Assembly (NCBI GenBank): GCA_964616825.1 | Contig: CAZTSX010000007.1 | Coordinates: forward strand, 40,248-104,247 | Reading direction: 5' to 3' | Origin: an uncultured Prolixibacteraceae bacterium | Lineage (GTDB): Bacteria; Bacteroidota; Bacteroidia; Bacteroidales; FEN-979 | Length of the DNA: 64,000 nucleotides | Part shown: piece after piece, positions 3,978-26,725 of the stretch | Numbering within the stretch: position 1 is the stretch's first letter | How the letters are laid out: every line of letters starts with the position of its first letter | Program-made: the position numbers and the translations under genes | The notes under the pieces: generated by a model | Database searches by the model: none | Told to the model about the DNA's origin: nothing | Seen by the model: only the letters and a program-made list of their open reading frames with translations

Positions 3978-4541
3978 TCATTCTTCTAACAGGTACATCT
4001 TCAATCCTTTTTCATCAACCGGTTCGATTAGCATTTTTTTCAGCGTTTCATAACTTCCAAACCGTTCATGAATCTCCTTTTTTGCAATCAGGGTAGGGTG
4101 TGGACTGATCGTGGCCCGGAACGAAGAGTATCGATACCACTCACAATTCGACACGACCCCATGCTTCCTTGGATTCTGATTGATATATCGCATTACATTA
4201 CACAATACTGCCTCACGGCGGATTTCGATCCGTTTTAGCTTGAAACGAAACAATTTCCCTATATGCCCGGTTTTGTTCACAAAACCCTTCGCATATGAGT
4301 TGAAAAGCAGAGCAAATGGCTTGTACGAATTCCCGTTAACCTCCTCTTTCATTCTGATCAGAAAATGAAAATGGTCGTCGAGAATGCAATATGCCCAGGT
4401 GTCGGCTACAGGCACAATATGCCTTTTGTATAGCTTCAGGAAGAAATGATAGTCCTCCTCTTTCGGAAACAATGGGTCCCCGTTTCTTGTCCGGTTATAA
4501 ATGTGATAAAATTTTCCCGGTTCCAGAATAATGGTTTTCAT
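3978..4541 (-). CDS. REP-associated / IS200-like Y1 (HUH) tyrosine transposase, solitary
   Basis: HUH motif DDHFHFLIRM and the Tyr region RYINQNPRKHG are present. There is no adjacent tnpB and I saw no terminal hairpins. Confidence 0.75.
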   Translation of the reverse strand: MKTIILEPGKFYHIYNRTRNGDPLFPKEEDYHFFLKLYKRHIVPVADTWAYCILDDHFHFLIRMKEEVNGNSYKPFALLFNSYAKGFVNKTGHIGKLFRFKLKRIEIRREAVLCNVMRYINQNPRKHGVVSNCEWYRYSSFRATISPHPTLIAKKEIHERFGSYETLKKMLIEPVDEKGLKMYLLEE

Positions 4542-4747: not shown

Positions 4748-5248
4748 TTAATTTTCCCGGAGAATGTGGTCGTCATACTCAATCTCAAAACTGAGTTTAT
4801 GCTTCGACTCCTCCTGAGCCAAGAGAAGAAACATCTCCCGCATTTCGGGCTGTTGAGCCCGGTCGGCCAGAGCCGTATAGAGTTTGAAAGCCGCTTTCTC
4901 TTTCTTCATAACCAGGATCAGGGCCTCTTCATAGGACATATCCGGCCTGTATTTCACATCCACAAGATAGTCAGAAAGTTTCATGTCTACTACTTTCTCG
5001 GTTCCAAAGACGGCAGCGCCATCCGCCTTCACCTCCATAAGCTTGGCTTTATGAGCCATCTCCTCTTTTGCAAACTCATGAAATGCCTTTTTAATACTCT
5101 CATTCTTAGACAGGTTCGCCAGTTTCAGATAAAAATCCACGGCAGCTTGCTCTTCCCCGATTGCAAAATCGAGTACATCATTGATGTTATTGAATTCTTT
5201 CATAGTTATATGTTTGTATTTGTTTGTTGCTGGTTTCTTGTCCCTCAT
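4748..5248 (-). CDS. ferritin-like / rubrerythrin-family diiron four-helix-bundle protein without a rubredoxin domain
   Basis: The helices EEQAAVDFY, AKEEMAHK, KKEKAAFKLY and AQEESKHK give an E...ExxH x2 pattern. No CxxC pair is present. The ATG at 5246-5248 overlaps the upstream stop codon (ATGA). An alternative start is Met16 at 5203. Confidence 0.7.
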   Translation of the reverse strand: MRDKKPATNKYKHITMKEFNNINDVLDFAIGEEQAAVDFYLKLANLSKNESIKKAFHEFAKEEMAHKAKLMEVKADGAAVFGTEKVVDMKLSDYLVDVKYRPDMSYEEALILVMKKEKAAFKLYTALADRAQQPEMREMFLLLAQEESKHKLSFEIEYDDHILREN

Positions 5249-8200
5249 ACCCTTAAACGTTCTTCAAATTCTTCTTCAAACCGCTTCACCAGGTAATCGC
5301 ATCCGTAATCAAATGAACGATTTAGGTTATCCTCCCTGGTATAAACCATCGCGAGGCTCTCTTCGGGCTGGTCCTCCTCAACATGCGGGAGCAACCGGAT
5401 GATCTCGCTAAAGACATCGTTGCGGCTTTCAAGGCCGTTCAGACCAAATCTTTTCAACAGTTCGATGAACTGCATGATGGAAGAGATCTCAATCCGGGAA
5501 GGCAATACAGGTTCAAATTCAAGAATAGCTTTTTGTGTATTTGAAAACGTGCCGCCAATCTCGGTGGGGAAGGAAGCCGGTAATATCAGGTCTGCTTCTT
5601 TTGCTGTGTCGGTCATAAAATAGTCCTGAACCACAATGAAGGGAATTTGTTTGATCAGAGAAGAATAGGTCTGGGTGGTGTCGCAACCAACCGGATCTTC
5701 ACCGAAAATAAACAGGTTCTTCATTATTTTTTTTGATAGCTTCAGTACCAGGCAATCCGCAACAATTCCCGGTATATCCTTAACATTCCACACATCTTTC
5801 AGTTTCTTGACATATGCTTCATCATCAAGAGGAATTCCTCCAACACCTGTACGACGACTGATTCCCATATCGAACAGGCCCTGAGAGTTATTCTTCTCCT
5901 TGAGTGTGATTAGTCCGTTGGCTGTTTTTCCGAGTTTACCGGTAATCATCGCCAGGTTGAACAGTTCCAGGGAGCTGTTGCTGGTGATCTCTTTTTCTGA
6001 GAAGATAGCGATGGCATTCATCTCAGTATTATACTCTTCAGCGAATTTCCTGATAACTTTTGGCAACACACCAGCATTGGATACCAATGTTGCAAAGTCT
6101 TCTTCCAAAATCTGAAGCTGGTACTCATTCTGTCCGATCACACGATCGCGGAGGAATAAATCGTTTTCTAACCCAAAGGTAAGCAGGTAGTGGTTAACCG
6201 CTTTGATGAAGTAATAATACGACTTCACGTGGATCACCTGATCGACCTTGTGAGTCATCGAACTCTCCTCCTTTTCGGTAACCAGAATTACCGGAATACC
6301 CTCTTTGGCCCGGGCATTATTCACCATGAATCCGGCCACAGCGTGATCCATGTTAATATCTGTCCCAATAAGGAAGATCTTCCCGGCTTTTCGGATGCTG
6401 TCAAGGGGTGCATTCTTTTGATGATTGAACCTGTATCCATCACCCCGTGTGAGGTAATGAAATGATCCAATATTGCCTGTCACGACTGCGGCACGTGCCA
6501 GTTTCTGGATCAGGTACATCTCTTCGTTTGTGAGCCTGGCTCCTGCAAAAAAACTATTTTCATCAGGCTTGACAGCACTGATTTTCTCAACGATTAACTT
6601 GAATGCTTCTTCAAAACTGATTTCCTTAAATTTTCCGTTAATCTTTTTTAACGGCCTGACTATCCGGCTCTTATCATTAAGATAAGCGTATCCAAAGCGA
6701 GGATATCTGCAGATATTGCCCTGTTGGTTCACCACTCCTTTGTTTCCGGAAACACTCATCACAAAGCCGTTGACCTGATTCAGCGTGATCGAACAGCCGA
6801 TTGAACAATAATTGCAGATTGCTTCGGATGGAGTTGTCTGAACCGGCCCGGGCTTGAACAGAACGTTCTCGGTGATCGCTCCTGTCGGACATGTTGAAAT
6901 ACACATCCCACATGATTCACAATTAGTATCCTGCAAGGCTTCTCCCATACTGGGTGAGACAAAAGTTTCAAAACCTCTGTTGACCAGTCCCAGGGCATTT
7001 GCGCCAACCACATCCCGGCAAATTCGGACGCAGCGTGAGCAAAGGATGCATTTATTGTTGTCGATCTCGATATATGGATGGCGGAAATCGACAGCATATT
7101 CGTTGAATTCACCAGCGAATCCTTTCTGGTCAGCATTGTATTCTGTCGAATACTTCTGCAGATCACAATTGAAAAAAGCTGTGCATCCGCATTCGAGGCA
7201 ACGTTGTGTTTCGTGAATTGCCACCACTTCATCAGCGTATCCCAACTCAACCTCATGGAAGTTCATCCGTTGATCAGCTTCCAGCACCGGCATCTCTTCG
7301 CGCTCCTGGGCAATAAACAGATCCTGATAATCTTCCTGAACTTGTGTCCTGAAATTATTGCGCCGGCTAATAAAGGGTTGTTTCAACGGTTTGATCTCAT
7401 CGCCCACCAGGTATTGGTGAGCACTATTTGAAGCAATTTTAGCCTGGGCTATCGCTTCGATGATGGTAGCCGGACCGGTAACGCCATCCCCTGCTGCAAA
7501 AACCGATGGAATACCGGTTTGTAATGTCTCTCTGTCGGCATCAATATCAGCCCACTTATTAACTTCAAGCTTATCGCCTTCGGTATTGGCGTTGATATCA
7601 TCGAGGAAATTCACGTCTGTCTTCTGACCAATGGCAGCCAGGACGTAATCTACGTTGAGTTCAAATTCAGATCCTTCGATTGGTACCGGCCTGCGTCGTC
7701 CCGAAGCATCAGGTTCTCCCAGCTTCATTTTAATACAGGTAACTGATTCCACCTCCCCTTTGTTATTCTTGTTGATCTTTTTAGGAAGTGTAAGAAAGAG
7801 ATATTCCACTCCTTCAAGTTTTGATTCATGGATCTCGATGGGATTGGCAGGCATCTCATTCTCTGTACGACGGTAAATCACATAGACGTTATCCGCCTTG
7901 CATCGCAATGATGTACGGCAACAGTCCATGGCCGTATTTCCTCCTCCGATGACAGCAATGGATTTGCCGCGGAAATCATACCGTTGTCCGGTCATCTCCA
8001 TGTTCTTCAGAAAATCGATCCCTGAGAAAACGTTTTCTGCATCATCCCCTTCACACCCTACACCTGTCCCAATCTGAGACCCGATGGTCAATATCACGGC
8101 ATCGTATTTATCTTTCAGCTCTTGATAGCTAAGGTTCTCTCCTAATTTCTGGTTGTAGAATATATTCATACCCAGATCGGTAATATTCTTCACCTCTTTG

Positions 8201-8952
8201 TCAAGGATATCATTCGGAAGCCTGTATTCAGGGATTCCGTAACGGAGCCAGCCTCCTGATTGGGGAGCCGCTTCAAAAATATCTACCTGGTGGCCCTCTA
8301 TCTGCAGGAAATAACCTGCTGAAAGACCGCCAGGTCCTGCACCGATCACGGCCACTTTTTTGCCAGTGGAGGGTTTGATCTCCGGAACAAACTTATCAGG
8401 GGACTCAAGGTCATAATCGGAAGCAAAGCGTTTCAGGTAATCGATACCTACGGGAGCGCTTTCATCCAGCAGGTTGCGACTGCATGCCACTTCACAGGGA
8501 CGAACACAAACCCGTCCGCAGATTGCCGGTAATGGGTTGGTCTCTTTGATGAGAGCCACAGCATCAGAATATAATCCCTTCTCAATCAGGGCGATATATC
8601 CCTGAACATCCACGCCGGCCGGACAGGTTTGCTTGCATGGCCCCAGACAGTCAGCATAGTGATTGCTCAACATCAGTTCCAACGCCATTTGCCGGGATTG
8701 ACGAATTGGTTCATTGTCGGTGACCACCTTCATCCCCTCTTTTATATGGGTGGAGCAAGCAGGCTGGTGTCCGCGCATTCCTTCTACTTCAACCACGCAT
8801 ATATAGCAAGAAGAGAATGGCTCTAGTCGTTCATCATGGCAAAGTGTTGGTATCTTGATGCCTTCCCGGTTAGCCACCTGGAGGATGGTTTCTCCCGGGT
8901 TTCCCTGAACGATCGTTCCGTTAAGAATTACGTTTACATCTTTTTGAGCCAT
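5245..8952 (-). CDS. 1235-aa NuoG-like iron-sulfur protein with an inserted GltD/NfnB-like FAD/NAD(P)H module and a C-terminal molybdopterin-oxidoreductase-like domain
   Basis: N-terminal [2Fe-2S] spacing C38-x10-C49-x2-C52-x13-C66. GltD-like part: CPAGVDV...GRVCVRPCEVAC, KKVAVIGAGPGGL, IAVIGGGNTAMD, GEPDASGRRRP and FAAGDGVTGP. Then come H580-x4-C-x2-C-x7-C, two CxxCxxCxxxC ferredoxin motifs and the MopB-type CNYCSIGC...GNIC cluster motif. The following ~500-aa domain has no obvious catalytic Cys or Sec. Confidence 0.7.
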   Translation of the reverse strand: MAQKDVNVILNGTIVQGNPGETILQVANREGIKIPTLCHDERLEPFSSCYICVVEVEGMRGHQPACSTHIKEGMKVVTDNEPIRQSRQMALELMLSNHYADCLGPCKQTCPAGVDVQGYIALIEKGLYSDAVALIKETNPLPAICGRVCVRPCEVACSRNLLDESAPVGIDYLKRFASDYDLESPDKFVPEIKPSTGKKVAVIGAGPGGLSAGYFLQIEGHQVDIFEAAPQSGGWLRYGIPEYRLPNDILDKEVKNITDLGMNIFYNQKLGENLSYQELKDKYDAVILTIGSQIGTGVGCEGDDAENVFSGIDFLKNMEMTGQRYDFRGKSIAVIGGGNTAMDCCRTSLRCKADNVYVIYRRTENEMPANPIEIHESKLEGVEYLFLTLPKKINKNNKGEVESVTCIKMKLGEPDASGRRRPVPIEGSEFELNVDYVLAAIGQKTDVNFLDDINANTEGDKLEVNKWADIDADRETLQTGIPSVFAAGDGVTGPATIIEAIAQAKIASNSAHQYLVGDEIKPLKQPFISRRNNFRTQVQEDYQDLFIAQEREEMPVLEADQRMNFHEVELGYADEVVAIHETQRCLECGCTAFFNCDLQKYSTEYNADQKGFAGEFNEYAVDFRHPYIEIDNNKCILCSRCVRICRDVVGANALGLVNRGFETFVSPSMGEALQDTNCESCGMCISTCPTGAITENVLFKPGPVQTTPSEAICNYCSIGCSITLNQVNGFVMSVSGNKGVVNQQGNICRYPRFGYAYLNDKSRIVRPLKKINGKFKEISFEEAFKLIVEKISAVKPDENSFFAGARLTNEEMYLIQKLARAAVVTGNIGSFHYLTRGDGYRFNHQKNAPLDSIRKAGKIFLIGTDINMDHAVAGFMVNNARAKEGIPVILVTEKEESSMTHKVDQVIHVKSYYYFIKAVNHYLLTFGLENDLFLRDRVIGQNEYQLQILEEDFATLVSNAGVLPKVIRKFAEEYNTEMNAIAIFSEKEITSNSSLELFNLAMITGKLGKTANGLITLKEKNNSQGLFDMGISRRTGVGGIPLDDEAYVKKLKDVWNVKDIPGIVADCLVLKLSKKIMKNLFIFGEDPVGCDTTQTYSSLIKQIPFIVVQDYFMTDTAKEADLILPASFPTEIGGTFSNTQKAILEFEPVLPSRIEISSIMQFIELLKRFGLNGLESRNDVFSEIIRLLPHVEEDQPEESLAMVYTREDNLNRSFDYGCDYLVKRFEEEFEERLRV

Positions 8953-8989
8953 CAGTTTCTTTTCTTGTTTTTTTGAGAATTCGGAGAGA

Positions 8990-10765
8990 TCATGTTAAAA
9001 CGATGGAATCAAACTTACACTTTGAGTAACAGATGCCACATTTCGTACAAAGATCCTGATGAATCAGATGTGGTTGCTTGCGCTCTCCTGTGATCGCATC
9101 GGAGGGGCAATTTTTCAGACAAACCAAACATCCGGTACACGCCTCCTGATCAACCGTATAGGTCAGTAAGGGCCGGCATACTTTCGCAGGGCATTTTTTG
9201 TCTTTTATATGTGCGATGTACTCATCCCTGAAATATTGAAGAGTCGTCAGAACGGGGTTAGGCGCTGTCTGGCCCAAACCACACAGGGAGTTATCTTTGA
9301 TCTGATATGACAGCTCCTCCAGTTTCTCAATATCTCCTTCTTTCCCTTTTCCATCAGAAATTCGTTCAAGGATCTCCAGCATTCTGATGGTTCCCATCCG
9401 ACAAAACGTACACTTCCCACATGACTCTTTGCACGTGAAATCGAGGAAAAACTTGGCGACATCCACCATGCAGGTACTCTCATCCATCACTACCATTCCT
9501 CCGGAACCCATAATGGCGCCCGTTGCATTTACGGAATCATAATCCACAATTGTATCAGAGAGATGTTCCGGTATACAACCTCCTGAAGGCCCGCCAAGTT
9601 GCACGGCTTTGAATTTTTTATCATCCTTGATGCCTCCTCCCAGTTTCATGATCACATCATTGATTGTGATGCCCATTGGGACTTCCACCAGCCCTGAATT
9701 TTTAATCTTTCCGGCCAGGGCAAAGACTTTGGTCCCTTTACTTCTTTCGGTTCCATAGCTGGCAAATGCGTCGCCTCCGTTAAGTATGATCCAGGGAATA
9801 TTAGCGAATGTTTCGACGTTATTAATATTAGTCGGATTGCCCCATAAACCTTTCTCAGCAGGAAACGGAGGGCGTCTGCGGGGCATCCCTCGTTCTCCTT
9901 CAACCGATGCGATCAGTGCAGTTTCTTCACCGCACACGAAAGCGCCAGCTCCCTCTTTAATGTAGATGTTGAAATTAAAATCTTCAATTCCGAAAGCATT
10001 GTTCCCTAGATACCCTCTATCACGGGCCTGATCAAGGGCAATATTAAGTCGTTTGATCGCAAGGGGATATTCAGCACGGCAATAGATCACACCACCAGTC
10101 GCATCAATGGAATAGGCGGCAATGATCATCCCTTCAATGACGGAATGAGGATCCCCTTCCAAAATGCTGCGATCCATGAAAGCCCCGGGATCGCCTTCGT
10201 CTGCATTACAGATGATATATTTTTCTTTCGACTTATACCCCCGGGCAAATTTCCATTTCATCCCTGTAGGGAATCCACCTCCACCCCGGCCCCGAAGTCC
10301 TGATTTGAGGATTGTTTCGATGACCAGATCGGGAGGGATCTTCTCATCGGCAATCTTCTGAACAGCTTTGTATCCTTTCCGGGCTTCATACTCTTCGATA
10401 GATTCGGGATCAATGTATCCGCAATTTCTCAACACGATCTTTACCTGCGCCGAAATAAATTTATTTTCCGATCCATCAAAGAGATCGGAGTAAACGATAT
10501 AATCACGAACAGGATCCTGTTGATTGATGTGTTTTTCTATAACTTCAATCGCCTGCTCTTCAGTAATGTCACCATACAAATAAGTTCCGGTATTGTCTAC
10601 AATCTCTACCAGAGGTTCCCTGTAACACATCCCGATGCAGCTGGTTTTCCGGAGGTTAAAATCCAGATTATCCGACTGCTTCAACGCTTTGATCTTCTCA
10701 TATGTCTTATTCGCGCCGGCGGCGATTCCACAGCTTCCAAGTCCGACGGTGACGGTAGTGTTCAT
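8990..10765 (-). CDS. NuoF/HydB-like NADH- and FMN-binding subunit (Bfu-type B subunit)
   Basis: Contains GLRGRGGGGFPTGMKWKF, ICNADEGDPGAFMDR and the CGKCTFCRMG cluster motif. It also has an N-terminal thioredoxin-like 2Fe-2S domain (GSCG...SCIGMC) and two C-terminal CxxCxxCxxxC(P) motifs. Confidence 0.85.
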   Translation of the reverse strand: MNTTVTVGLGSCGIAAGANKTYEKIKALKQSDNLDFNLRKTSCIGMCYREPLVEIVDNTGTYLYGDITEEQAIEVIEKHINQQDPVRDYIVYSDLFDGSENKFISAQVKIVLRNCGYIDPESIEEYEARKGYKAVQKIADEKIPPDLVIETILKSGLRGRGGGGFPTGMKWKFARGYKSKEKYIICNADEGDPGAFMDRSILEGDPHSVIEGMIIAAYSIDATGGVIYCRAEYPLAIKRLNIALDQARDRGYLGNNAFGIEDFNFNIYIKEGAGAFVCGEETALIASVEGERGMPRRRPPFPAEKGLWGNPTNINNVETFANIPWIILNGGDAFASYGTERSKGTKVFALAGKIKNSGLVEVPMGITINDVIMKLGGGIKDDKKFKAVQLGGPSGGCIPEHLSDTIVDYDSVNATGAIMGSGGMVVMDESTCMVDVAKFFLDFTCKESCGKCTFCRMGTIRMLEILERISDGKGKEGDIEKLEELSYQIKDNSLCGLGQTAPNPVLTTLQYFRDEYIAHIKDKKCPAKVCRPLLTYTVDQEACTGCLVCLKNCPSDAITGERKQPHLIHQDLCTKCGICYSKCKFDSIVLT

Positions 10766-10780
10766 GTTGATTTCGTTAGG

Positions 10781-11299
10781 TTAGTTTTTTTCTGCCAGCC
10801 TTATATTTTTTATCACTTTCACAGCCTGATTGCCTGTTAATTTGCCATAGGTCTGATCACCGACCATCATCACCGGGGCCAGGGAGCAACAGCCCAGACA
10901 AGCTACCGACTCCAGGGTAAATAGCCTGTCGTCTGTGGTCTCTCCGTCTTTGATCTTCATCGCCTCCTCGAGGGATTCGGTGAGTTCGTTCGCGTTTTGC
11001 ACGTGACAAGCAGTACCGTGGCATACCTTGACTATGTGTTTACCAACAGGGTTCAACCGGAACTGTGCATAGAAGGTAGCAACGCCATACATATCACTGA
11101 GAGGGATTCCCGTTTTGACGGAGATCTTTGTAAAAACAGCTTCAGGGATAAAACCATAAATATCCTGAGCCCCCTGCAATAGTGGGATCACATTTCCCTT
11201 TTTTCCGATATACTTTTCAATCAACGGATCAAGAAGTACGAGATCTACGTCAATGGATTCCTTCTTCTCCGTTTTCGCTTGTAATCGTGGAATGCGCAT
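10781..11299 (-). CDS. NuoE/HydC-like thioredoxin-like [2Fe-2S] subunit
   Basis: VCHGTACH...SVACLGCCSLAPVMMV is the typical 24-kDa subunit signature. Confidence 0.85.
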   Translation of the reverse strand: MRIPRLQAKTEKKESIDVDLVLLDPLIEKYIGKKGNVIPLLQGAQDIYGFIPEAVFTKISVKTGIPLSDMYGVATFYAQFRLNPVGKHIVKVCHGTACHVQNANELTESLEEAMKIKDGETTDDRLFTLESVACLGCCSLAPVMMVGDQTYGKLTGNQAVKVIKNIRLAEKN

Positions 11300-11408
11300 T
11301 AAATAATCTTATTAGAGTAACGACCTTTATTCATGCCAGGTCCTGGTTATCAAGATGTGCATGGAGTAATTTGTTTCGATGTTTGAGTCTGATTCCCTGT
11401 CCCCTGTA

Positions 11409-13211
11409 TCAATCTTTCCGCCTGGTTTTCATTTTCGACAGTTTCTTGTGAATTGCGTTGGCAGCAATTCTTCCGGCGCCCATGGCTTCAATCACAGTAG
11501 CGGAACCTGTTACAATGTCGCCGCCAGCATAGACAAACTCTTTTGAGGTTTCGTTTGTTTTTGGATCTACAACAATATTTCCCCACTTATTAAGCTCTAT
11601 ATCCGGAGCGGTCTGGAATATGATCGGATTGGCATCGTTACCAATAGCCACCACTGCCAGATCGACATCTAATACAAAGTTTGATCCTTCAATCGGAACC
11701 GGTCTTCTTCGGCCGGAATCATCCGGTTCTCCGAGTTTCATTTCGATACACTCCATTGCTTTGAGCGTATTGACATCTGTTCCGAGAAATCTGATTGGAT
11801 AGGTGAGCAACCGGAATTTCACTCCTTCTTCCTCTGCATGAATCACCTCTTCATGACGTGCAGGCAGCTCGGTTCTTGATCTGCGGTAGACGATGGTGAC
11901 TTCAGTTGAACCGGTTCGGATGGCCGTTCTGGCACAATCCATGGCTACATTCCCTCCTCCAATGACAGCGACACGGTTCCCTTTCGGTTTCGGTGTATCA
12001 TATTCCGGGAATCTATAAGCTTTCATCAGGTTCATCCGGGTTAGATATTCATTTGCGGAGAAGACATTCCCCAGGCTCTCCCCTTCAATGTGCATAAACT
12101 TGGGCAAACCGGCTCCCACCGCAATGAAAACTGCATCGAAGTGCTCGAGTAACTCGTCAACCGTATTGATCTTTCCGATAACCTGGTTCAGTTCGATCCT
12201 GACACCCATCTCTTTCAGGTAATTGATCTCAAACTGCACAATGGATTTTGGAAGCCTGAACTCCGGGATTCCATATGTAAGTACGCCACCCGTTTCATGA
12301 AATGCTTCAAAGATCGTCACGGCATATCCGAGGAGTTGCAAGTCGGCTGCAACGGTCAGGCCGGCTGGTCCTGAGCCTACAACAGCGATTCTTTTTCCCT
12401 GTTTTTTCTTGATCACCGGGATGCTTACCAGGTCCATCTTCCGTTCCCAGTCTGCCACAAAACGCTCCAGGTTACCAATCGCGACCGGCGTATCCTTGAT
12501 GCCAACGATACAGATCTCCTCACATTGGTTTTCCTGCGGACATACACGGCCACAAATAGCAGGCAGTACATTTCGCTCCTTTACTTTCTTGATGGATTCG
12601 TCAAACTTCTCTTCAGCAATCAACCTGATAAACTCAGGGATATCTATATTAACCGGACATCCATCGACACATTTCGGTTTTTTACATTGCAGGCAACGGC
12701 CGGCTTCCAACAACGCCAGTTCAGAAGTATAGCCATAAGGGACCTCCTGGTAATTTGCTGTTCTTAGCTTCTGATCCTGAGCAGGCATCTCCTGGCGGGG
12801 TATTTTTAGTTTGATTTTTCGTTCATCTGCCCTGGTCAGGCCATGCCACTCACAGCCGTATTTCATGCAGATGTAAAAGGGAATCAACTTTGAATAGCTG
12901 GAGATCGTTATCTCTCCCAGTGATGATCCACATTCGCCACATTTCTTTTCAGGTATGACAAGGTTGGTTTTGCAAAACGGACATGCAAGTCCGGTTAGAA
13001 TCTTCCCTTCTTCGATCGGAATTGATGATGCAACCTCAAATACATCAAGGTATGGGCTAAGTTTAAGCTGAAAATCGGAACCGTTATAGCTAGCATCAAC
13101 GATGATAGTTTGGGCCTCTTTATCTTCAACATTAAAGCTTTGGTTGCAATGCGGGCAGTAGGTGTTTAGAAAGGTTTTGTACTTTAAGTACTTTACATCT
13201 TGCTCATTCAT
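11409..13211 (-). CDS. nfnB: NfnB / GltD-family NADPH-dependent oxidoreductase beta subunit with a ~135-aa N-terminal Cys-rich ribbon module
   Basis: Contains RCLQCKKPKCVDGCP, GRVCPQENQCEEIC, AVVGSGPAGL, AVIGGGNVAMD and GEPDDSGRRRP. The N-terminal extension has C19xxC22, C77xxC80, C91xxC94 and C115x4C120xxH123. Confidence 0.8.
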   Translation of the reverse strand: MNEQDVKYLKYKTFLNTYCPHCNQSFNVEDKEAQTIIVDASYNGSDFQLKLSPYLDVFEVASSIPIEEGKILTGLACPFCKTNLVIPEKKCGECGSSLGEITISSYSKLIPFYICMKYGCEWHGLTRADERKIKLKIPRQEMPAQDQKLRTANYQEVPYGYTSELALLEAGRCLQCKKPKCVDGCPVNIDIPEFIRLIAEEKFDESIKKVKERNVLPAICGRVCPQENQCEEICIVGIKDTPVAIGNLERFVADWERKMDLVSIPVIKKKQGKRIAVVGSGPAGLTVAADLQLLGYAVTIFEAFHETGGVLTYGIPEFRLPKSIVQFEINYLKEMGVRIELNQVIGKINTVDELLEHFDAVFIAVGAGLPKFMHIEGESLGNVFSANEYLTRMNLMKAYRFPEYDTPKPKGNRVAVIGGGNVAMDCARTAIRTGSTEVTIVYRRSRTELPARHEEVIHAEEEGVKFRLLTYPIRFLGTDVNTLKAMECIEMKLGEPDDSGRRRPVPIEGSNFVLDVDLAVVAIGNDANPIIFQTAPDIELNKWGNIVVDPKTNETSKEFVYAGGDIVTGSATVIEAMGAGRIAANAIHKKLSKMKTRRKD

Positions 13212-13223
13212 AGTAGTATGGGT

Positions 13224-14048
13224 TTAATGGATCGAAAACAACAAACAATCTTTCTCTTCCTTTAGATAGATGGAGTTACGTTTCATCAGTTCATCAAAAT
13301 TCACCTGGTGTCCATCAAAGTCAGGTCCGTCCACACAGGCAAACTTCACTTTATCATCAATGGTGACACGGCATCCCCCACACATCCCTGTTCCATCAAT
13401 CATAATGGGATTCAGGCTGACGATTGTGGGTGTGTCAAACTTCTTTGTAAGGCCACAAACTGTTTTCATCATGATCAGAGGTCCAATTGCATAGACCAAC
13501 TTGATGTCATTTCGTTCCTGGAGATATTTTTCAAGCGGCTGTGTCACAAATCCCCGGGTGCCATAGCTTCCGTCATCGGTTGTCACCACCAATTCATCAC
13601 TGATCATTTCCATCTCTTTCTCCAGTATGACCAGGTCCTTATCCCTGGCTCCGATAATGCTGATCACATAATTGCCGGCTTCCTTGAACGCTTTGGCGAC
13701 ATGATGCAAAATGGCCACACCGGTACCTCCTCCAACCATCACAACGGTTCCTATCTTCTCAACTTCTGCAGGTCGTCCGAGCGGACCAGCAATATCCCGG
13801 ATAAAATCGCCCTCATTCAATGAGCGCATCAATGCAGTAGTTTTTCCTACCACCTGAAAGATGATCGTAATAATCCCTGCGAACTCATCTTTATCAGCAA
13901 TAGTCATCGGAATGCGTTCACCGGTTTCGTTTACTCGTAAGATAATAAATTGTCCTGCCTGCGCTTTTTTTGCAATTTTCGGAGCAATAATGTCAAATCG
14001 TACAATAGTACCTTTAGCTAACTCTTGTTTTCTGCTTATCTGAAACAT
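13224..14048 (-). CDS. nfnA: NfnA / PyrK-like ferredoxin-NADP reductase-type alpha subunit
   Basis: FNR-like fold motifs RIPMTIAD and MVGGGTGVA, with a C-terminal CGGCRV...FACVDGPDF [2Fe-2S] motif. It sits 12 nt upstream of nfnB. Confidence 0.8.
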   Translation of the reverse strand: MFQISRKQELAKGTIVRFDIIAPKIAKKAQAGQFIILRVNETGERIPMTIADKDEFAGIITIIFQVVGKTTALMRSLNEGDFIRDIAGPLGRPAEVEKIGTVVMVGGGTGVAILHHVAKAFKEAGNYVISIIGARDKDLVILEKEMEMISDELVVTTDDGSYGTRGFVTQPLEKYLQERNDIKLVYAIGPLIMMKTVCGLTKKFDTPTIVSLNPIMIDGTGMCGGCRVTIDDKVKFACVDGPDFDGHQVNFDELMKRNSIYLKEEKDCLLFSIH

Positions 14049-14066
14049 AGTATATTTAGTTAATTG

Positions 14067-14942
14067 TTACCATTCCAAGCTATCCTCCAGTTTGATATCC
14101 TGAAGGTCTTCATCACTCAATCCATGCCATTTGCAGCCTTTTTTCGAGCAAAGATAGAAATTAATCATTTTTGTTCTGGCACTGATAAATATTCTTGCGA
14201 TGGGTGAACCACACTCTTCACATGCCTTGTTTGCTGAAATCAAACTGGTGTCACAATGTGGGCAGGAAATATCAGTCACCGGCTTATCTTCCTGAAGATA
14301 CACTGTTGATTCTGAGGTAAATACATTCATATAAGGACTCAAGATCAGAATACCTGATTTCCCATCGGTTGTGATATTTAGCTTCAGGATATCGTGTTCG
14401 ATCAGGCTTTTAAGGCAGTGGGGGCAGTAGGACAACAGGAAGGCTCCGGATTCGATCATCTCTTTCTTCTCATCTTTTTCTGCAGCAGGAGGAGCCGGTT
14501 TTGTTGCCATGGTTTTCCGATGCTCATTGGTGTATTTTCCGGCTAACCCGTAATCCTGATATAATTTACTCAATGCCAGGGAAACATCATCGAATTCTAC
14601 AAAATGATTTCTACACCCGCTTCTTGAACAGATACTGACCCTTCCTCCCATATCCAGGATAAACGGAACCAGTGGGGCGCTACAAATAGAACATGCATTT
14701 TCAGATGTGATCTCAGTCTTACAGTGTGGACATGAAAACTGTGCAATCAGATCAGGGGAGAGTGGAATACTACACCGGTAATTATAACTCCCCCAAATAG
14801 AACTCAGAAAAATGAATGAAGTTTGTTTCTTGGCCTTTATTCCCAGTTTTATACTGGGCTTCTTATCTACAAGTTCTTGATCATCAATGAGGGAGGTATT
14901 GCAGTATGGACAGTTAACAATAAGGGTAATAAAATCATACAT
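14067..14942 (-). CDS. uncharacterised protein made of two tandem 8-Cys/1-His ribbon modules
   Basis: Module 1 has C11xxC14, C71xxC74, C84xxC87 and C105x4C110xxH113. Module 2 has C173xxC176, C227xxC230, C241xxC244 and C265x4C270xxH273. The pattern matches the NfnB N-terminus, and a Pro/Ala/Lys-rich linker joins the two modules. Confidence 0.7.
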   Translation of the reverse strand: MYDFITLIVNCPYCNTSLIDDQELVDKKPSIKLGIKAKKQTSFIFLSSIWGSYNYRCSIPLSPDLIAQFSCPHCKTEITSENACSICSAPLVPFILDMGGRVSICSRSGCRNHFVEFDDVSLALSKLYQDYGLAGKYTNEHRKTMATKPAPPAAEKDEKKEMIESGAFLLSYCPHCLKSLIEHDILKLNITTDGKSGILILSPYMNVFTSESTVYLQEDKPVTDISCPHCDTSLISANKACEECGSPIARIFISARTKMINFYLCSKKGCKWHGLSDEDLQDIKLEDSLEW

Positions 14943-14985
14943 GGCCTGCTCACTTTTCTTTATTCTGGTAACATCTCAGGAGTTG

Positions 14986-14993
14986 CAAAATTA
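14986..14993 (-). promoter_or_regulatory. candidate -7 promoter box (TAATTTTG) for the redox gene string
   Basis: Plus-strand caaaatta, which reads TAATTTTG on the minus strand. It lies 44 nt upstream of the ATG at 14942. Confidence 0.4.
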
Positions 14994-15017: not shown

Positions 15018-18000
15018 TTATCCACCCCATGTAATCACAGAAATTCGTTTTCTTCCATCCATTCTTACGACAAGTGGTTTTACAAAAGAGGAGACAGTAA
15101 AATAGTTATATTCGTAAGTGTGGTTTTGTTGTTTAAGAATATCGTACCTGATAAAGCTTTTTGAGATCTCAGGCTGGACGCACAGATACCCGACATTCAT
15201 GGATGTAACATTATGAAAGAAATGCGATCCGGATGAGGCATCCAGCGGAAAACCTTCCAGGCTGGTCTCCACAATCACCCTGGCATTGGATATTTGAGGC
15301 CATGTAACCGGGATCCCTATCCACCGGTCCCTGGTCCCCCACCGTCCCGGTCCGATCAAAATATACTTTTTGTTCCGGCTGATCATATCGGCATTGATCT
15401 TCTCTATCTCATCAGCCATTGCAACGGTTTGAGATTTGTCAAATGTGTCGGGATCAACATAGACGACATCATAGATGTTATCGATGATACCATTACCCAT
15501 CTCGCGCTCTGAAAAGAGTAAAATTTGCTCCTTCCGGATCTTTTTCATGTTGATCCTGTAATCCTTGGTATTCCCGATCATCGGCTTAACCTGGAGGAGA
15601 TAAAACGTGGCTCTGCCATGCTGATCCTTGGTCAGGTCTACTGCAAACTCGATCTCAACCGGTGAACCCAGCGCCTCTTTCACCACATCAAGAACGACTT
15701 CGATGGTTTTAGCAAGTGGAATATAATTATATTTCAGGATGTCGGCAAAATTGATCACCCGCGGGCCGGCTTTCGTCAGTCCGGGTATGATCTGGTTATC
15801 ATCAGTACTAAAAACCGATGCAATATGGTTGATAGAGCCATGATGTTCAGCTTCGTCGATATCCAGGGTCCTCAATCCGGCTTCTTCACCATCAAGGAGG
15901 TTCAGGTCCTCTTTCTTCAAATCAACAGCATAAAAACGAACCTGACTCCGTTTTAATTGAGTATGTGCGGAACTGATCTCCAGATTTGGATACTGAGGTG
16001 AAAAGCGGAATGTTTTCTCACCTTCAACAACATACTGGCCAAGTCCAAGTGCAATTACAGCAACCCCCTCTTCCGGTTTCATGTGTCCATAGGGATAATA
16101 GTTGTATGAATGAGCAACACCACTGATATGCGGATAGAAAACATCCTCATGTTGGTTTCCTACCACCTCCTGAATCACAACAGCCATTTTTTCCTGGTCA
16201 ATCCGGTAATGCACAGCTTCAAAATATTTTTTCGCTGTTGGAGAATATATCGATGCATATACCAGTTTGATTGCATTTTTTAACTGTTCAAGGCGAACAC
16301 TCGGATCGGGATGGTTATTGGGGATCATGTAGGTTTCAAAGATACCGGCGAAAGGCTGGTTCAGGGAATCTTCAAATAATCCGGAAGAACGGATTGCCAG
16401 GGGTTTGTTGATGTGCTTGATGATCAGTTTTAATTTACTGATTAAGGCTTCAGACTGCTTCCCTTCGATAAACCATCTCTTTAGCTTTTGATAATCGGTC
16501 TCCAACATCACTTTTTCACGCAATTGATTCCGGTCCATGAAAAAATCAAACTCATCTGTTCCGATTATCGAGGTGACCGGTGTCTGGATATTTATATTAG
16601 GAATATGGTGGGAGAAGTCGTAGTTATATATAACTGTGTTACTAAAGGCAAGACCTCGTCCTTTGCCCCCAAGAGTACCTTCCGTCAGGCTAAGGATATT
16701 AGTAGCATCAGTGATAGCCGATTCCTCAAATGGGATTACTTTACCCTTATCCTGTTCGTTCCTGAAATGCGAGATCACCGAGACCAGATACTCGCGCAAA
16801 CTGGCAGCATCTTTAAAATCAGCGACTTTGGCGGGATTCAGGATCTTTGCTGCCTGGATTTCACTCCGTGCCATCAACCAAAGGGAGAAGTGATCTTTGT
16901 GGGCATGGAAAAGAAGTGACTCCTCCGGTATCGTTTTTAATTTGTCTTCAAACTCTTTCAGCGACCTGGCCTGATCAATTTGCTTTCCTTCTTTGTCGCG
17001 GTAGATAAAGTTCCCAAAACCAAGGTAGCGGGTTATGAAACTTCTGAAATCGGCTAGCAGGGTGTCTGAATTTTTGTTGATGAAAGCAGTCTTCATATCA
17101 TCCGCCCAGGAGGTGTTTGAATCGTCGAACGACTGCAGAACGATCGGGAGATCACGGGACTCTTTGCGAATTTGGTTGACAAGAGTGAATCCGGCATTAT
17201 CATTGAGCTTTCCGTCCTTCTTAAACTTGACGTCAGAGATCAGGCAGAGGATAAATTCGTTGTACTTATGAAAGATATATATAGCCTCCTCATAGGTGGA
17301 AGCAAGTAAGATTTTTGGGCGGGCTTTCAATCGGAGAATACGGTACAACTCATCCGTAGTGACATCTTCAATGATATGCTTCGTCTGCTCCAAAACAATG
17401 TTGTAGAGCATAGGGAGGTAGAGCGAGTAATATTGCGGCGAATCTTCAACCAGCAGAATTACCCTGACCATCCCAAGTTTGGTATCATTCTCTATATTGA
17501 TCTTATCTTCCAGGTAATTGATCATGGCAAAAAAGATCCGGGTATCCCCGTTCCAGATGAAGATGCGATCTATCCAGTTTAGCCGTTCTGGCTCCTCTTC
17601 GAAAAGGGCGACGTCGATGTTGCTGTTTAAGAGTAGAAATACAGGGATGTATTGAAATGCAGCCTTAACCTGCTTGCTAAGCTCAACCGGAAATTCCTTG
17701 TCGACACCAAGCATAATAATCACCAGGTCATAGTGCTTGGCATTCAACTGTTCCATGACTTCTTCTTTTGAAGAAACCCCTGTAATACGAGGCATTGTGC
17801 TCAGGCTCAATTGATAATACTCACCCAGCACATGTTCTGAAAAGCGACCCTCCTTTTCAATGCTGTAAGCATCGTACAGATTAGCCACAAGCAGGATTTC
17901 ACGAACCTTGAACGGCATTAAGTCGTGGTAAAGATCCCTGTTGGCATTCGTTCGGTTGAGAAATGACTGCAACAAGTGGCGACTGGAGGTTTCCTGTTCC

Positions 18001-18863
18001 TGGCTCGTTGTTGCCCTTTTTTTCAGGATCGCTTTTCCTTTGATGGAGTTTAAATATCCTGAAATGAGATTAGCCAAGTTGACGATCAGTACCCTCTCCT
18101 CTTCAAGAAAAGGCCCTTCAGAAGCTTCCGGAAATCCTTTCAAATAACAGATATCAATAAATCCTTCCTGGTTATCAATGGTCTCAAATTTCTGAACCTG
18201 CTGCCATTGTGTTTCGCGAAAATTCGGAGTCTGCACAACTATGTTTCCATATCTTATTCTGCTGGCAGTAAACTCCGGATATTGCCATGCACGTGGAAGT
18301 ATCAGGCATATTTGACGCAGAGACTCTTCAGGCGAGGTTCCCGTACGAAGGATGTTTGTAGTCTGATTGATCGCATCGAGTTCTTTCAGATGTTCCCTTG
18401 TGACATACCTGCCTTCCCGACCTTTCATGGCATTCAGATATCCCTCAATCAGGCTGCTAAGGGTATTGAGCAGGCTTTGCTCTTCCTTCAGAAAAGGACC
18501 TTGGTCGGCTTCCGCGAATTTTTTCGTGTAAAAGATCTCAATTGAGCAAACCAGGTTATCAATTGTAGTAAAAACCTGCTCTTGCTTCCACTCCGTCTCA
18601 ACGAACTGGTCACTGACAAACTCCATCTCATCGATTCGTATCCGAGCAACAGTATATCTGGGATATTGCCAGGCTTTCGGCAGAATCTTACAGATCTTTT
18701 GAAGGGTATCTGAAACAGGCTTTCCCTTTTTAATAATTGCAGTCGTTTCATTGATAGCTGCCAGTTCCTTTAGTCGTTCACGATTATCGTAAAGGAGCTT
18801 ATTAAAGTCAGCTTTATCAACATGAGTTTTGCTGTTCCGTTTTCTGTTCTCTTTCCCAGGCAT
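15018..18863 (-). CDS. multidomain sensor enzyme: 2 x GAF-like repeat, pseudo-receiver, receiver, PEP/pyruvate-binding (PPDK/PEP synthase N-terminal ATP-grasp) domain and an unassigned C-terminal domain
   Basis: An internal 129-aa repeat covers residues ~27-147 and ~156-276 (LKEL.AIN.T...ILP.AWQYP...GPFL.EE). The first receiver-like segment has DLVIIMLG, so no acceptor Asp. The second has VEDS...LISDVKF. The TLGGKGRGLAF nucleotide-binding loop is typical of the PPDK_N family. Confidence 0.6.
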   Translation of the reverse strand: MPGKENRKRNSKTHVDKADFNKLLYDNRERLKELAAINETTAIIKKGKPVSDTLQKICKILPKAWQYPRYTVARIRIDEMEFVSDQFVETEWKQEQVFTTIDNLVCSIEIFYTKKFAEADQGPFLKEEQSLLNTLSSLIEGYLNAMKGREGRYVTREHLKELDAINQTTNILRTGTSPEESLRQICLILPRAWQYPEFTASRIRYGNIVVQTPNFRETQWQQVQKFETIDNQEGFIDICYLKGFPEASEGPFLEEERVLIVNLANLISGYLNSIKGKAILKKRATTSQEQETSSRHLLQSFLNRTNANRDLYHDLMPFKVREILLVANLYDAYSIEKEGRFSEHVLGEYYQLSLSTMPRITGVSSKEEVMEQLNAKHYDLVIIMLGVDKEFPVELSKQVKAAFQYIPVFLLLNSNIDVALFEEEPERLNWIDRIFIWNGDTRIFFAMINYLEDKINIENDTKLGMVRVILLVEDSPQYYSLYLPMLYNIVLEQTKHIIEDVTTDELYRILRLKARPKILLASTYEEAIYIFHKYNEFILCLISDVKFKKDGKLNDNAGFTLVNQIRKESRDLPIVLQSFDDSNTSWADDMKTAFINKNSDTLLADFRSFITRYLGFGNFIYRDKEGKQIDQARSLKEFEDKLKTIPEESLLFHAHKDHFSLWLMARSEIQAAKILNPAKVADFKDAASLREYLVSVISHFRNEQDKGKVIPFEESAITDATNILSLTEGTLGGKGRGLAFSNTVIYNYDFSHHIPNINIQTPVTSIIGTDEFDFFMDRNQLREKVMLETDYQKLKRWFIEGKQSEALISKLKLIIKHINKPLAIRSSGLFEDSLNQPFAGIFETYMIPNNHPDPSVRLEQLKNAIKLVYASIYSPTAKKYFEAVHYRIDQEKMAVVIQEVVGNQHEDVFYPHISGVAHSYNYYPYGHMKPEEGVAVIALGLGQYVVEGEKTFRFSPQYPNLEISSAHTQLKRSQVRFYAVDLKKEDLNLLDGEEAGLRTLDIDEAEHHGSINHIASVFSTDDNQIIPGLTKAGPRVINFADILKYNYIPLAKTIEVVLDVVKEALGSPVEIEFAVDLTKDQHGRATFYLLQVKPMIGNTKDYRINMKKIRKEQILLFSEREMGNGIIDNIYDVVYVDPDTFDKSQTVAMADEIEKINADMISRNKKYILIGPGRWGTRDRWIGIPVTWPQISNARVIVETSLEGFPLDASSGSHFFHNVTSMNVGYLCVQPEISKSFIRYDILKQQNHTYEYNYFTVSSFVKPLVVRMDGRKRISVITWGG

Positions 18864-19119: not shown

Positions 19120-20478
19120 ATGACAACCAATGCATTTCAACAACAGGTAGATGAGTTCATGGCTAAGATTATAGCCAAGAATCCAGCTGAAACTGAGTTT
19201 CATCAGGCTGTACTGGAAGTTGCCGAAACACTGATTCCTTTCATTGAAGAGAATCCAAAGTACAAAACGACTAAGATTCTTGAACGGATCGCTGAGCCGG
19301 AAAGAGTCATTTTATTCCGTGTTCCATGGCTGGACGACAAGGGTGAGCCACAGGTCAACCGGGGTTTCCGGATTGAGATGAACAGCGCCATTGGCCCATA
19401 CAAAGGAGGCATGCGTTTTCACCCGACTGTGAACCTGGGCATCCTGAAGTTTCTGGCTTTTGAGCAGGTGTTCAAAAATAGTTTGACTACCCTTCCAATG
19501 GGTGGTGGTAAAGGGGGAAGTGATTTTGATCCCAAAGGAAAATCCGATAATGAAGTGATGAAATTCTGCTATAGCTTCATGAATGAACTCTTCCGTCATA
19601 TTGGCGCAAATACAGACATACCAGCCGGTGACATCGGCGTTGGGGGTCGTGAAATCGGCTTCATGTTTGGTCAGTACAAAAAATTGAGAAATGAATTCAC
19701 CGGTGTATTTACCGGTAAAGGTATCGACTGGGGTGGAAGTCTGATCCGTCCGGAAGCTACAGGTTACGGACAGGTTTATTTTGCCGAAGAGATGCTGAAG
19801 ACTCGTGGAATGGACTTCAAAGGGAAAATCTGTACTGTTTCAGGTTCAGGTAACGTAGCTCAGTATGCTACACAAAAAGCTACTGAACTCGGCGGAAAAG
19901 TTGTTACACTCTCCGATTCCCAGGGTTACATTCACGATCCGAAAGGTATCGATGGTGAGAAGCTTGCTTTTGTCATGAATCTGAAGAATGTAAAACGTGG
20001 ACGGATCAAGGAGTATTGCGACAAATATCCTGAAGCCCAATTCTTCCCGGGCATGAGGCCATGGGACGTGAAGTGCGATATTGCTCTTCCTAGTGCTACC
20101 GAGAATGAAGTCAATGGCGAAGAAGCTGAATTGCTGATCAAGAACGGTTGTTTCTGTGTCTCTGAAGGAGCCAATATGCCTTCCACACCGGAAGCTATCG
20201 AAGTATATATAAACAAGAAAATTCTTTATGGCCCAGGAAAAGCTGCCAATGCAGGTGGTGTTGCCACATCTGGTCTTGAGATGTCTCAAAATTCAATGCG
20301 GTTGTCATGGACAAGAGAAGAGGTTGACAGCAAACTTCACGAAATCATGATCAACATCCATAAAGCCTGTGTGAAATTCGGCACCGAATCCGATGGCTTT
20401 ATCAACTACGTTAAGGGTGCCAACATCGGCGGTTTCGTGAAAGTTGCCGATGCTATGTTAGCTCAAGGACTCGTTTAA
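19120..20478 (+). CDS. gdhA: NADP-specific glutamate dehydrogenase
   Basis: 452 aa with KGGMRFHP and PMGGGKGGSDFDPKGKSDNEV, the hexameric Glu/Leu/Phe/Val dehydrogenase signatures. Confidence 0.95.
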   Translation: MTTNAFQQQVDEFMAKIIAKNPAETEFHQAVLEVAETLIPFIEENPKYKTTKILERIAEPERVILFRVPWLDDKGEPQVNRGFRIEMNSAIGPYKGGMRFHPTVNLGILKFLAFEQVFKNSLTTLPMGGGKGGSDFDPKGKSDNEVMKFCYSFMNELFRHIGANTDIPAGDIGVGGREIGFMFGQYKKLRNEFTGVFTGKGIDWGGSLIRPEATGYGQVYFAEEMLKTRGMDFKGKICTVSGSGNVAQYATQKATELGGKVVTLSDSQGYIHDPKGIDGEKLAFVMNLKNVKRGRIKEYCDKYPEAQFFPGMRPWDVKCDIALPSATENEVNGEEAELLIKNGCFCVSEGANMPSTPEAIEVYINKKILYGPGKAANAGGVATSGLEMSQNSMRLSWTREEVDSKLHEIMINIHKACVKFGTESDGFINYVKGANIGGFVKVADAMLAQGLV

Positions 20479-22850: not shown

Positions 22851-22855
22851 TCGTT

Positions 22856-24813: not shown

Positions 24814-24818
24814 ACTGT

Positions 24819-26698: not shown

Positions 26699-26725
26699 CC
26701 TGTGTCTTCAATTATTGTGGATTCC

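Follow-up and report, generated by a model that had tools for sequence, protein, structure and literature searches.

A string of seven minus-strand genes in a stretch of 64,000 nucleotides (nt) from an uncultured Prolixibacteraceae bacterium (contig CAZTSX010000007.1, positions 40,248 to 104,247; hereafter the window) encodes two kinds of transhydrogenase, the pair known as NfnAB and the trio known as NfnABC, together with a cysteine-rich ribbon protein and a di-iron ferritin-like protein. We consider it probable that these genes make up an operon for redox balancing, conserved in anaerobic Bacteroidota and Ignavibacteria, that comprises two complete, separable and co-regulated transhydrogenases and a set of lineage-specific accessories. 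The names NfnA and NfnB differ between the two systems; here, the pair is called NfnS and NfnL (NfnSL), and the trio, of the Bfu/Stn type, is called NfnC, NfnB and NfnA (NfnCBA when gene order is meant). The string is laid out as follows (lengths in amino acids, aa).

14067..14942, minus strand: 291-aa ribbon protein (open reading frame), consisting of a type-A module, a linker and a type-B module
13224..14048, minus strand: NfnS (NfnA of NfnAB), small transhydrogenase subunit, 274 aa (PDB, NCBIfam, motifs)
11409..13211, minus strand: NfnL (NfnB of NfnAB), large subunit, 600 aa (PDB match of the core, Cys motifs)
11300..11408, minus strand: 109-nt spacer separating NfnSL from NfnCBA, without a terminator-like hairpin and without TAnnTTTG
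10781..11299, minus strand: NfnC (BfuC/StnA), thioredoxin-like [2Fe-2S] subunit, 172 aa (PF01257, PDB)
8990..10765, minus strand: NfnB (NuoF-like, BfuB), 591 aa (full-length PDB matches, Pfam)
5245..8952, minus strand: NfnA (BfuA/StnC), 1235 aa (PDB, Pfam architecture)
4748..5248, minus strand: Cys-less di-iron ferritin-like ('erythrin'-type) protein, 166 aa as annotated (PF02915)

Two transhydrogenases in one gene string

A sequence-only reading of this DNA had described seven co-directional genes, and all seven open reading frames were found on the minus strand at the same coordinates; Pfam and NCBIfam also agree with the domain content that it had assigned. The closest genome, the metagenome-assembled genome NIOZ-UU56, shares 94-99% protein identity across the string. 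With the annotated starts, the gaps along the string are 18, 12, 109, 15 and 37 nt, plus one 4-nt overlap between NfnA and the di-iron gene. The spacings read earlier therefore stand, with the exception of the overlap: Met16 of the di-iron protein is near-invariant and its relatives are called at 151 aa, and translation probably begins at Met16 (position 5203), which would leave a 41-nt gap.

Sequence matches identify the pair as a genuine NfnSL (NfnAB). NfnS consists of NAD_binding_1 and DHODB_Fe-S_bind domains (Pfam) and matches NCBIfam NF004862 with 397 bits. The diagnostic NfnS motifs are given in PMC6405883 as ERxPxT and DGTGMCGxCR-x10-CV, and the NfnS translation carries ERIPMT (FAD strand) and DGTGMCGGCRVTIDDKVKFACV ([2Fe-2S] motif with an Asp ligand). 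In the PDB, NfnS matches Pyrococcus furiosus NfnI-S (5jca_S, E = 7e-96) and 4ylf_A (E = 2e-80), and NfnII (5vj7_B) scores far lower. NfnL begins with a 130-aa Cys-rich extension, followed from about aa 140 by Fer4_20 and Pyr_redox_2 (Pfam). Its core (aa 140-591) matches Thermotoga maritima NfnB (4ylf_B, E = 3e-164) and P. furiosus NfnI-L (E = 6e-150), and both of its [4Fe-4S] Cys motifs are invariant across 60 homologues. The large subunit scores 504-551 bits against NfnI and T. maritima NfnAB and 464 against 5vj7, and the small subunit 273-324 and 195 bits, respectively, a ranking of scores that by itself does not prove substrate use. The 2019 Nfn review (PMC6405883) distinguishes four Nfn architectures, patterns A-D, and an NfnL of 600 aa with an N-terminal ribbon module fits none of these (large subunit ~470 aa); it is a variant architecture that still belongs to the Nfn enzyme family. 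NfnL proteins of ~600 aa bearing the extension are as common as the 291-aa ribbon family, and one of them is labelled candidate division KSB1. Such proteins currently carry the label 'NADPH-dependent glutamate synthase'.

The same kind of evidence makes the trio an ordinary transhydrogenase of the NfnABC type (Stn, Nfn-Bfu type 1). In a PDB sequence search, NfnC, NfnB and NfnA each best matched, over essentially their full length, the corresponding chains of three solved Nfn-Bfu complexes, those of Caldicellulosiruptor saccharolyticus (9bov), Sporomusa ovata (8oh5) and Thermococcus sibiricus (9n5u), with best E-values of 1e-54, ~1e-260 and 1e-233, respectively. NfnC carries PF01257 (2Fe-2S_thioredx, E = 3e-49) and has 9bov_C, 8oh5_A and 9n5u_C as its best chains. 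NfnB matches 8oh5_B, 9bov_B and 9n5u_B along its full length at about E = 1e-260, and its residues 5-589 align with StnB 3-582 with a common Cys pattern. Its Pfam domains lie at aa 24-78, 153-324, 435-519 and 536-587, and Pfam bears out the extra N-terminal 2Fe-2S domain (partial thioredoxin-like) and the two C-terminal Fer4 motifs that had been read in this protein. A BfuB of the Nfn type has already been catalogued in Bacteroidetes by Schut et al.

NfnA matches 9bov_A (E = 1e-233; alignment over aa 13-1048 and 1072-1184), 8oh5_C (E = 6e-213) and 9n5u_A (E = 8e-189), and its Pfam domains run in the order Fer2_4, Fer4_20, Pyr_redox_2, Fer4_Nqo3, Molybdop_Fe4S4 and Molybdopterin. Two of its parts deserve coordinates.

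7441-8643, minus strand: NfnL/GltD-like FAD-NADPH domain, behind the N-terminal [2Fe-2S] domain
5488-6822, minus strand: Fdh/NuoG-like domain without the pterin-binding C-terminal part

Published descriptions give C. saccharolyticus NfnA (1178 aa) an N-terminal, an NfnL-like and an Fdh/NuoG-like domain, with an incomplete pterin site and an A2-A4-A5 side branch that is left over and probably non-functional; Sporomusa StnC (1172 aa) is built of the same domains, its pterin site being inactive. Because the 1235-aa protein matches this plan and a Pfam scan found no PF01568 domain in it, what had been called a NuoG-like/GltD fusion is the normal third subunit (NfnA/StnC). The view of it as a part added to the known enzymes was rejected on the PDB matches and on the three-domain architecture that it shares with the solved proteins. 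An active formate dehydrogenase in the C-terminal domain was also rejected, since PF01568 is missing and the solved homologues lack pterin; pterin is probably absent from the window NfnA as well. More than 120 full-length cluster representatives are homologous to NfnA at 67% identity or more, and the named ones are all from Bacteroidales or Bacteroidota. NfnA proteins of relatives are currently labelled 'formate dehydrogenase major subunit' or 'molybdopterin-dependent oxidoreductase'.

The PDB matches thus support both identities in the earlier proposal that a classical NfnAB pair is joined to a Bfu-type trio, and with NfnL and the GltD-like domain of NfnA the locus does encode two GltD-type NADPH sites. 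By homology, both enzymes would catalyse NADH + reduced ferredoxin + 2 NADP+ <-> NAD+ + oxidised ferredoxin + 2 NADPH. NfnSL would bifurcate at the FAD of NfnL; in NfnABC/Stn, NADPH would enter at the GltD-like domain of NfnA, with bifurcation at the FMN/cluster site of NfnB-NfnC. Each enzyme should be sufficient by itself, and together they may provide NADPH to, or draw it away from, consumers such as the glutamate dehydrogenase encoded nearby.

Conservation of the two units

The arrangement was followed in two samples, 80 species-level genome loci covering ±10 kb around NfnA (NfnA-seeded) and 8 long contigs selected by length only (ribbon-seeded). It recurs in many genomes and metagenome contigs and is common to contigs labelled Bacteroidales and Ignavibacteriae. 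NfnC, NfnB and NfnA are adjacent in essentially all of the 80 loci where the contig permits, and ribbon-NfnS-NfnL is a fixed unit in all 8 ribbon-seeded contigs, adjoined by NfnCBA in 7 of them in several orders. The gene order is therefore kept within the trio and within the ribbon-NfnS-NfnL unit, but conservation of the string as a whole is narrower: ribbon and/or NfnSL genes lie within ±10 kb in only 13 of the 80 NfnA-seeded loci, and the other 67 have NfnCBA without a nearby ribbon-NfnSL. According to the literature, NfnSL and NfnABC/Stn almost exclude each other in acetogens and Thermococcaceae, so that the conserved linkage seen here is unusual.

At least four arrangements of ribbon-NfnSL relative to NfnCBA were found. 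The first unit stands directly 5' of the second in the window and in loci L001, L004, L041, L051, L062 and L066; in L043, L049 and L064 it stands upstream with 3-4 kb of unrelated genes between, mostly on the opposite strand; loci L063, L078 and L090 have the order NfnCBA-ribbon-NfnS-NfnL-di-iron; and in L073 and L077 the ribbon gene directly precedes NfnC, with NfnSL not nearby. The closed genome OY760934.1 has the two units ~110 kb apart. Median spacers are 17 nt for NfnS-NfnL, 65 nt for NfnC-NfnB, 38 nt for NfnB-NfnA and 28.5 nt for NfnA-di-iron, and the NfnL-NfnC spacer across relatives has a median of 440 nt and ranges from 12 to 4299 nt. The string consists of two compact units with a seam of variable length between them, and the 109-nt gap, singled out earlier as the one exception among short spacings, is this seam.

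Other genes occur in and beside the string of some relatives. Small open reading frames of PF05635 (23S rRNA intervening-sequence protein) are inserted between Nfn/Bfu genes in several of them (L083, 13738-14115 and 16664-17050; L088, 14428-14838; L089, 14464-14880 and 16719-17078). A second, divergent BfuB/BfuC pair lies 5' of the ribbon gene in L041 (118-2395), L051 (1220-3494), L064 (7-258) and one JGI contig. The BfuB of this second pair is ~52% identical to the window NfnB, and in the JGI contig the pair is part of a HydABC-type [FeFe] hydrogenase cluster that also holds response-regulator genes and genes resembling sensory hydrogenases.

Ribbon modules and the di-iron protein

The sequence-only reading saw parts foreign to both known systems; the ribbon modules and the di-iron protein are such parts, and the 1235-aa fusion is not. 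The window holds three homologous copies of the ribbon module, namely the two halves of the 291-aa protein and the first 130 residues of NfnL.

14550-14942, minus strand: type-A module of the ribbon protein, aa 1-131
aa 132-164 of the ribbon protein, minus strand: linker, predicted to be disordered (AlphaFold2)
14070-14450, minus strand: type-B module of the ribbon protein, aa 165-291
12822-13211, minus strand: N-terminal type-B module of NfnL, 130 aa

The module is ~125 aa long, with 8 Cys (four knuckles) and one His that are invariant or near-invariant in 61 homologues, and each copy probably holds two putative tetra-Cys metal sites. HMMs built from the homologues of the window proteins split the modules cleanly into type A, the first half of the ribbon protein, and type B, its second half and the NfnL extension, with B being the subtype fused to the NfnL N-terminus. 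The module that the ribbon protein had been said to share with NfnL is accordingly the second one only (38-45% identity to the NfnL extension), and the two modules of the ribbon protein differ in subtype. Every ribbon-linked NfnL seen bears the extension. The 291-aa family has 636 homologues, of which the named ones are all 'hypothetical' proteins from Bacteroidota/Ignavibacteriae. Pfam gave only sub- or near-threshold matches of the ribbon protein, to Zn-ribbon families, and NCBIfam gave none. AlphaFold2 models the protein as two all-beta modules (pLDDT ~90 for module 1) with a disordered linker; a Foldseek search of this model against the PDB returned no fold relative (none better than E = 0.1, TM ≤0.15), and hhalign aligned the module profile with rubredoxin at a probability of 1%, with nothing shared beyond one CxxCG knuckle.

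When a profile of the three copies in the window was run against 1.84 billion representatives, 305 proteins were retrieved. NuoE/BfuC-like proteins with PF01257 (P0463, P0464, P0499, P0502 and P0508) were found to carry type A at their C-terminus, and a metagenome scan with P0499 as the query recovered 31 loci with a full BfuC-A fusion. At these loci, an NfnB-like gene (47-51% identity) comes next wherever the contig is long enough, and in 11 a GltD-like domain follows it, in L117 fused as a 1043-aa protein. Because the fusions are independent (A to BfuC, B to NfnL), the module family is tied to both kinds of bifurcating enzyme in the window.

The BfuC-A clusters themselves (L091-L120 and L133; in detail L117, 7955-14633, and L113, 4792-13366) are unusual. 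One type consists of BfuC-A, the 1043-aa NuoF-GltD fusion, a small Fer2_4+Fer4 protein and a Glu_synthase-domain protein, and the other consists of BfuC-A, BfuB and a small BfuA adjoining a type III glutamine synthetase; these clusters may encode a Bfu-type glutamate synthase. In L042, an apparent remnant of a ribbon-type NfnL (87-976; the N-extension and a fragment matching aa 295-452) lies ~7 kb 5' of NfnC and may be a decayed copy or an artefact of assembly or masking.

The type-B module is tethered at the NfnL N-terminus, beside the ferredoxin-side [4Fe-4S] domain. In the reading that we prefer, the A+B ribbon protein would most likely serve as an accessory, with B-B contacts holding it to NfnL and its A module possibly binding the Bfu core. 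The same parts can be given a larger role. The A and B modules might form an unrecognised docking or electron-relay family of bifurcating Fe-S flavoenzymes, with the ribbon protein as an adaptor whose B module pairs with that of NfnL and whose A module binds the NfnC/NfnB core, so that NfnSL and NfnABC, possibly with the di-iron protein, become a single two-bifurcase assembly that channels or shares low-potential electrons and has a regulated or new net reaction. The fusions argue for this by Rosetta-stone logic, as A occurs on Bfu C subunits elsewhere, B occurs on NfnL and the ribbon protein is A-linker-B; the loci with a ribbon gene right before NfnC and no NfnSL nearby point the same way. 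Coupling of some form is likewise favoured by the adjacency of NfnCBA and ribbon-NfnSL, in various orders, in the ribbon-seeded contigs. However, an obligate single complex is disfavoured, since most loci with NfnCBA and the di-iron gene lack a nearby ribbon-NfnSL and the units are separable, being split apart or 110 kb distant in some genomes. In addition, type-A modules are carried by unrelated proteins, and joining the ferredoxin ends of two isofunctional enzymes yields no obvious net chemistry. We therefore regard such an assembly, and the docking or relay family that it presupposes, as unlikely.

The di-iron protein belongs to PF02915 (rubrerythrin/ferritin-like, E = 2e-13). Residues E33, E62/E63, H66, E117, E146/E147 and H150 are invariant in 54 homologues and form two E...ExxH motifs of a four-helix bundle. 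None of the 54 homologues contains a cysteine, so that a rubredoxin-like Fe(Cys)4 domain is absent, and the identification as a true rubrerythrin was rejected although the di-iron E...ExxH pattern is present. The nearest structures, the uncharacterised ferritin-like proteins 2fzf (P. furiosus) and TM1526 (1vjx), are weak matches (E = 2e-7 to 6e-5). The gene lies within 300 nt after NfnA in 46 of 69 loci and closes the string whichever enzyme precedes it, following NfnL by ~1 nt in L063, L078 and L090; it is missing where ribbon-NfnSL stands alone (L085, L171). Thus, the di-iron gene tracks NfnCBA rather than ribbon-NfnSL. Schut et al. (2022) predicted a Rub-Bfu (type 4 Bfu) that lacks BfuA and has a rubrerythrin gene directly after BfuB; membership in this type was rejected, because here a complete NfnA separates NfnB from the di-iron gene. 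Most likely, the di-iron protein would act as a protective partner handling oxygen, peroxide or iron.

Alternatively, the tetra-Cys sites might bind iron in a rubredoxin-like manner, and the ribbon protein and the NfnL extension might relay NAD(P)H/ferredoxin electrons to the di-iron protein for the reduction of O2 or H2O2. This proposal is modelled on the NROR-rubredoxin-rubrerythrin chain and on the predicted Rub-Bfu. In true rubrerythrins, the rubredoxin domain is the electron entry point, and the Cys-less di-iron protein has no such domain of its own. Its gene always closes the string, in three loci right after NfnL, and the L081 string contains two AhpC/TSA (peroxiredoxin/thioredoxin-like) genes between NfnL and NfnC (13803-14944), which hints at an oxidative-stress theme. 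Moreover, a Bfu-linked rubrerythrin route was predicted by Schut et al., and the authors of the C. saccharolyticus NfnA paper suggest that the dead-end A2-A4-A5 branch may serve as an 'overflow'. The distribution of the genes argues against a relay, as the di-iron gene is found mainly with NfnCBA where no ribbon gene is nearby (46 of 69 against 13 of 80 loci) and is missing at lone ribbon-NfnSL units; in addition, the Pfam matches of the modules are to Zn-ribbon families only, and their relation to rubredoxin is limited to the one knuckle. An iron relay to the di-iron protein therefore seems improbable, and less likely than a ribbon-mediated link between the enzymes.

Wider neighbourhood and known systems

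Three further features lie at the 5' end of the string.

15018..18863, minus strand: 1281-aa PPDK_N (ATP-grasp) protein (Pfam), probably the first gene of the conserved string
19120..20478, plus strand: gdhA, glutamate dehydrogenase (Pfam ELFV_dehydrog), divergent from the PPDK-like gene
14986..14993, minus strand: TAATTTTG, a match to the Bacteroidetes-type -7 motif TAnnTTTG, 51 nt 5' of the ribbon start codon

PPDK_N is the sole domain that Pfam recognises in the 1281-aa protein, which had no match in the PDB sequence search. Relatives of 1150-1281 aa are encoded in L002-L040, L081, L085, L087-L089 and L171. Where this gene directly precedes NfnC (33 loci), the two are separated by a median of 38 nt, and 26 of 40 loci have TAnnTTTG within 150 nt upstream of the gene (background, 0.07 per 150 nt). 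This enrichment and the short gap indicate that the PPDK-like gene is probably the first of the string, which would then begin one gene earlier than had been read. The gene stays with ribbon-NfnSL where that unit is unlinked from NfnCBA, and in 26 loci a paralogue with 37-40% identity comes after the di-iron gene.

Eight TAnnTTTG motifs are present on the minus strand of the 15.5-kb region, of which two are intergenic, upstream of the PPDK-like gene (by 28 nt in the window) and of the ribbon gene. The 109-nt gap has no such motif, and no terminator-like hairpin was found on the coding strand between any of the string genes in the window. A sigma-70 scan was uninformative (33 sites against 26 expected), sigma-70 being the wrong promoter type for Bacteroidota. 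These signals are consistent with co-transcription of the string.

As had been noted, gdhA lies near the string, and it is also divergent from the PPDK-like gene in L081, L085, L087, L088 and L089. Because this position recurs in distant relatives, gdhA, an NADPH consumer, belongs to the conserved neighbourhood and is not there by chance. Farther out, window positions 20522-31213 hold polysaccharide-synthesis, Wzy_C and ABC_transp_aux genes of families that match those upstream of gdhA in L081, whose ribbon protein is 58% identical to that of the window. Just 3' of the string is a REP-associated tyrosine-transposase-like gene (3978-4541, minus strand), which matches NF047646 with E = 4e-12, short of the curated cut-off, and is also near the string in L001, L002, L023 and L033. 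T9SS sorting domains are encoded elsewhere in the window, in keeping with its origin from a member of the Bacteroidota.

Shared surroundings of this kind raise the question of whether the string genes are neighbours by descent only, that is, housekeeping redox genes of inherited synteny, with the ribbon protein as a structural zinc accessory of NfnSL alone and the di-iron protein unrelated to either enzyme. ABC_transp_aux, glycosyltransferase, Wzy_C, gdhA and PPDK-like genes are all syntenic with L081, the NfnL-NfnC seam is variable and sometimes holds unrelated genes, and ribbon-NfnSL is missing near most NfnA-seeded loci. On the other hand, the linkage survives rearrangement, with ribbon-NfnSL either 5' of NfnC or between NfnA and the di-iron gene; it spans Bacteroidales- and Ignavibacteriae-labelled contigs; and independent fusions connect the module family to Bfu C subunits. 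We consider descent alone a doubtful explanation, about as improbable as the iron relay.

Several observations also weigh against the operon of two separable, co-regulated enzymes that we favour. Two isofunctional enzymes in one operon are odd, for which reason one of them may have a different partner or direction. Type A is also found on cyclase, Mur-ligase-like and CBS proteins and is hence not Bfu-specific. Zinc and iron cannot be told apart in the ribbon modules from sequence, and the AlphaFold2 model of NfnL is too poor for placing its module (pTM 0.53, pLDDT <50 in the Fe-S domain). The -7 motif upstream of the ribbon gene is a weak signal, kept in only 6 of 21 loci. Finally, since wider gene families are shared with L081, part of the neighbourhood conservation is plain inherited synteny.

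Anaerobes have two known ways of coupling their NADH, NADPH and ferredoxin pools, NfnSL and NfnABC/Stn, and widespread environmental Bacteroidota and Ignavibacteria keep both in one string, which raises the question of whether the two are truly redundant. The enzymes themselves are already known and unrelated to each other; what is new is their linkage, the A/B ribbon modules and the Cys-less di-iron gene at the end of the string. In a limited literature collection, we found neither an NfnSL-NfnABC operon nor the ribbon module described. The analysis exposes an unannotated Cys-rich domain family, with fusions at the N-terminus of NfnL and at the C-terminal end of Bfu C subunits. Should the modules serve for docking or electron relay, they would offer a new handle on the partner wiring of bifurcating enzymes and a possible role for the 'dead-end' branch of clusters in NfnA; should they be structural zinc sites and no more, the finding shrinks to a useful correction of the NfnL and NfnA labels.

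Compared with known systems, the modules resemble Zn-ribbon and rubredoxin-like Cys4 modules in their paired CxxC-type knuckles, of which there are four per module. The di-iron protein shares the duplicated E...ExxH bundle with TM1526 (1vjx) and P. furiosus 2fzf, its closest solved relatives, but the similarity is weak and both structures are without an assigned function. The NROR-rubredoxin-rubrerythrin peroxide-reduction chain of anaerobes (summarised in PMC9304861) is alike in that genes for NAD(P)H-linked flavoenzymes, Cys4 modules and a di-iron protein are clustered; here, however, the modules are ~125-aa all-beta units with two putative sites, not rubredoxins. In the predicted Rub-Bfu, as here, a rubrerythrin-family gene ends a Bfu cluster, which suggests a link to peroxide or oxygen chemistry, whereas the string of the window has a full NfnA and a di-iron protein without Cys. 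With NfnAB/NfnSL (T. maritima 4ylf, P. furiosus NfnI 5jca), the pair has both subunits, the cofactor motifs and the core subunit sizes in common, and it differs in the 130-aa type-B module at the NfnL N-terminus and in the two-module ribbon protein that is always encoded just 5' of NfnS. The publications on the solved NfnABC/Stn enzymes (9bov, 8oh5, 9n5u) mention neither a rubrerythrin nor an Nfn neighbour; the trio of the window shares with these enzymes its three subunits, the gene order C-B-A and the domain plan of NfnA, and differs in its link to an NfnSL unit, in the di-iron gene that usually follows and in the PPDK_N protein that precedes.

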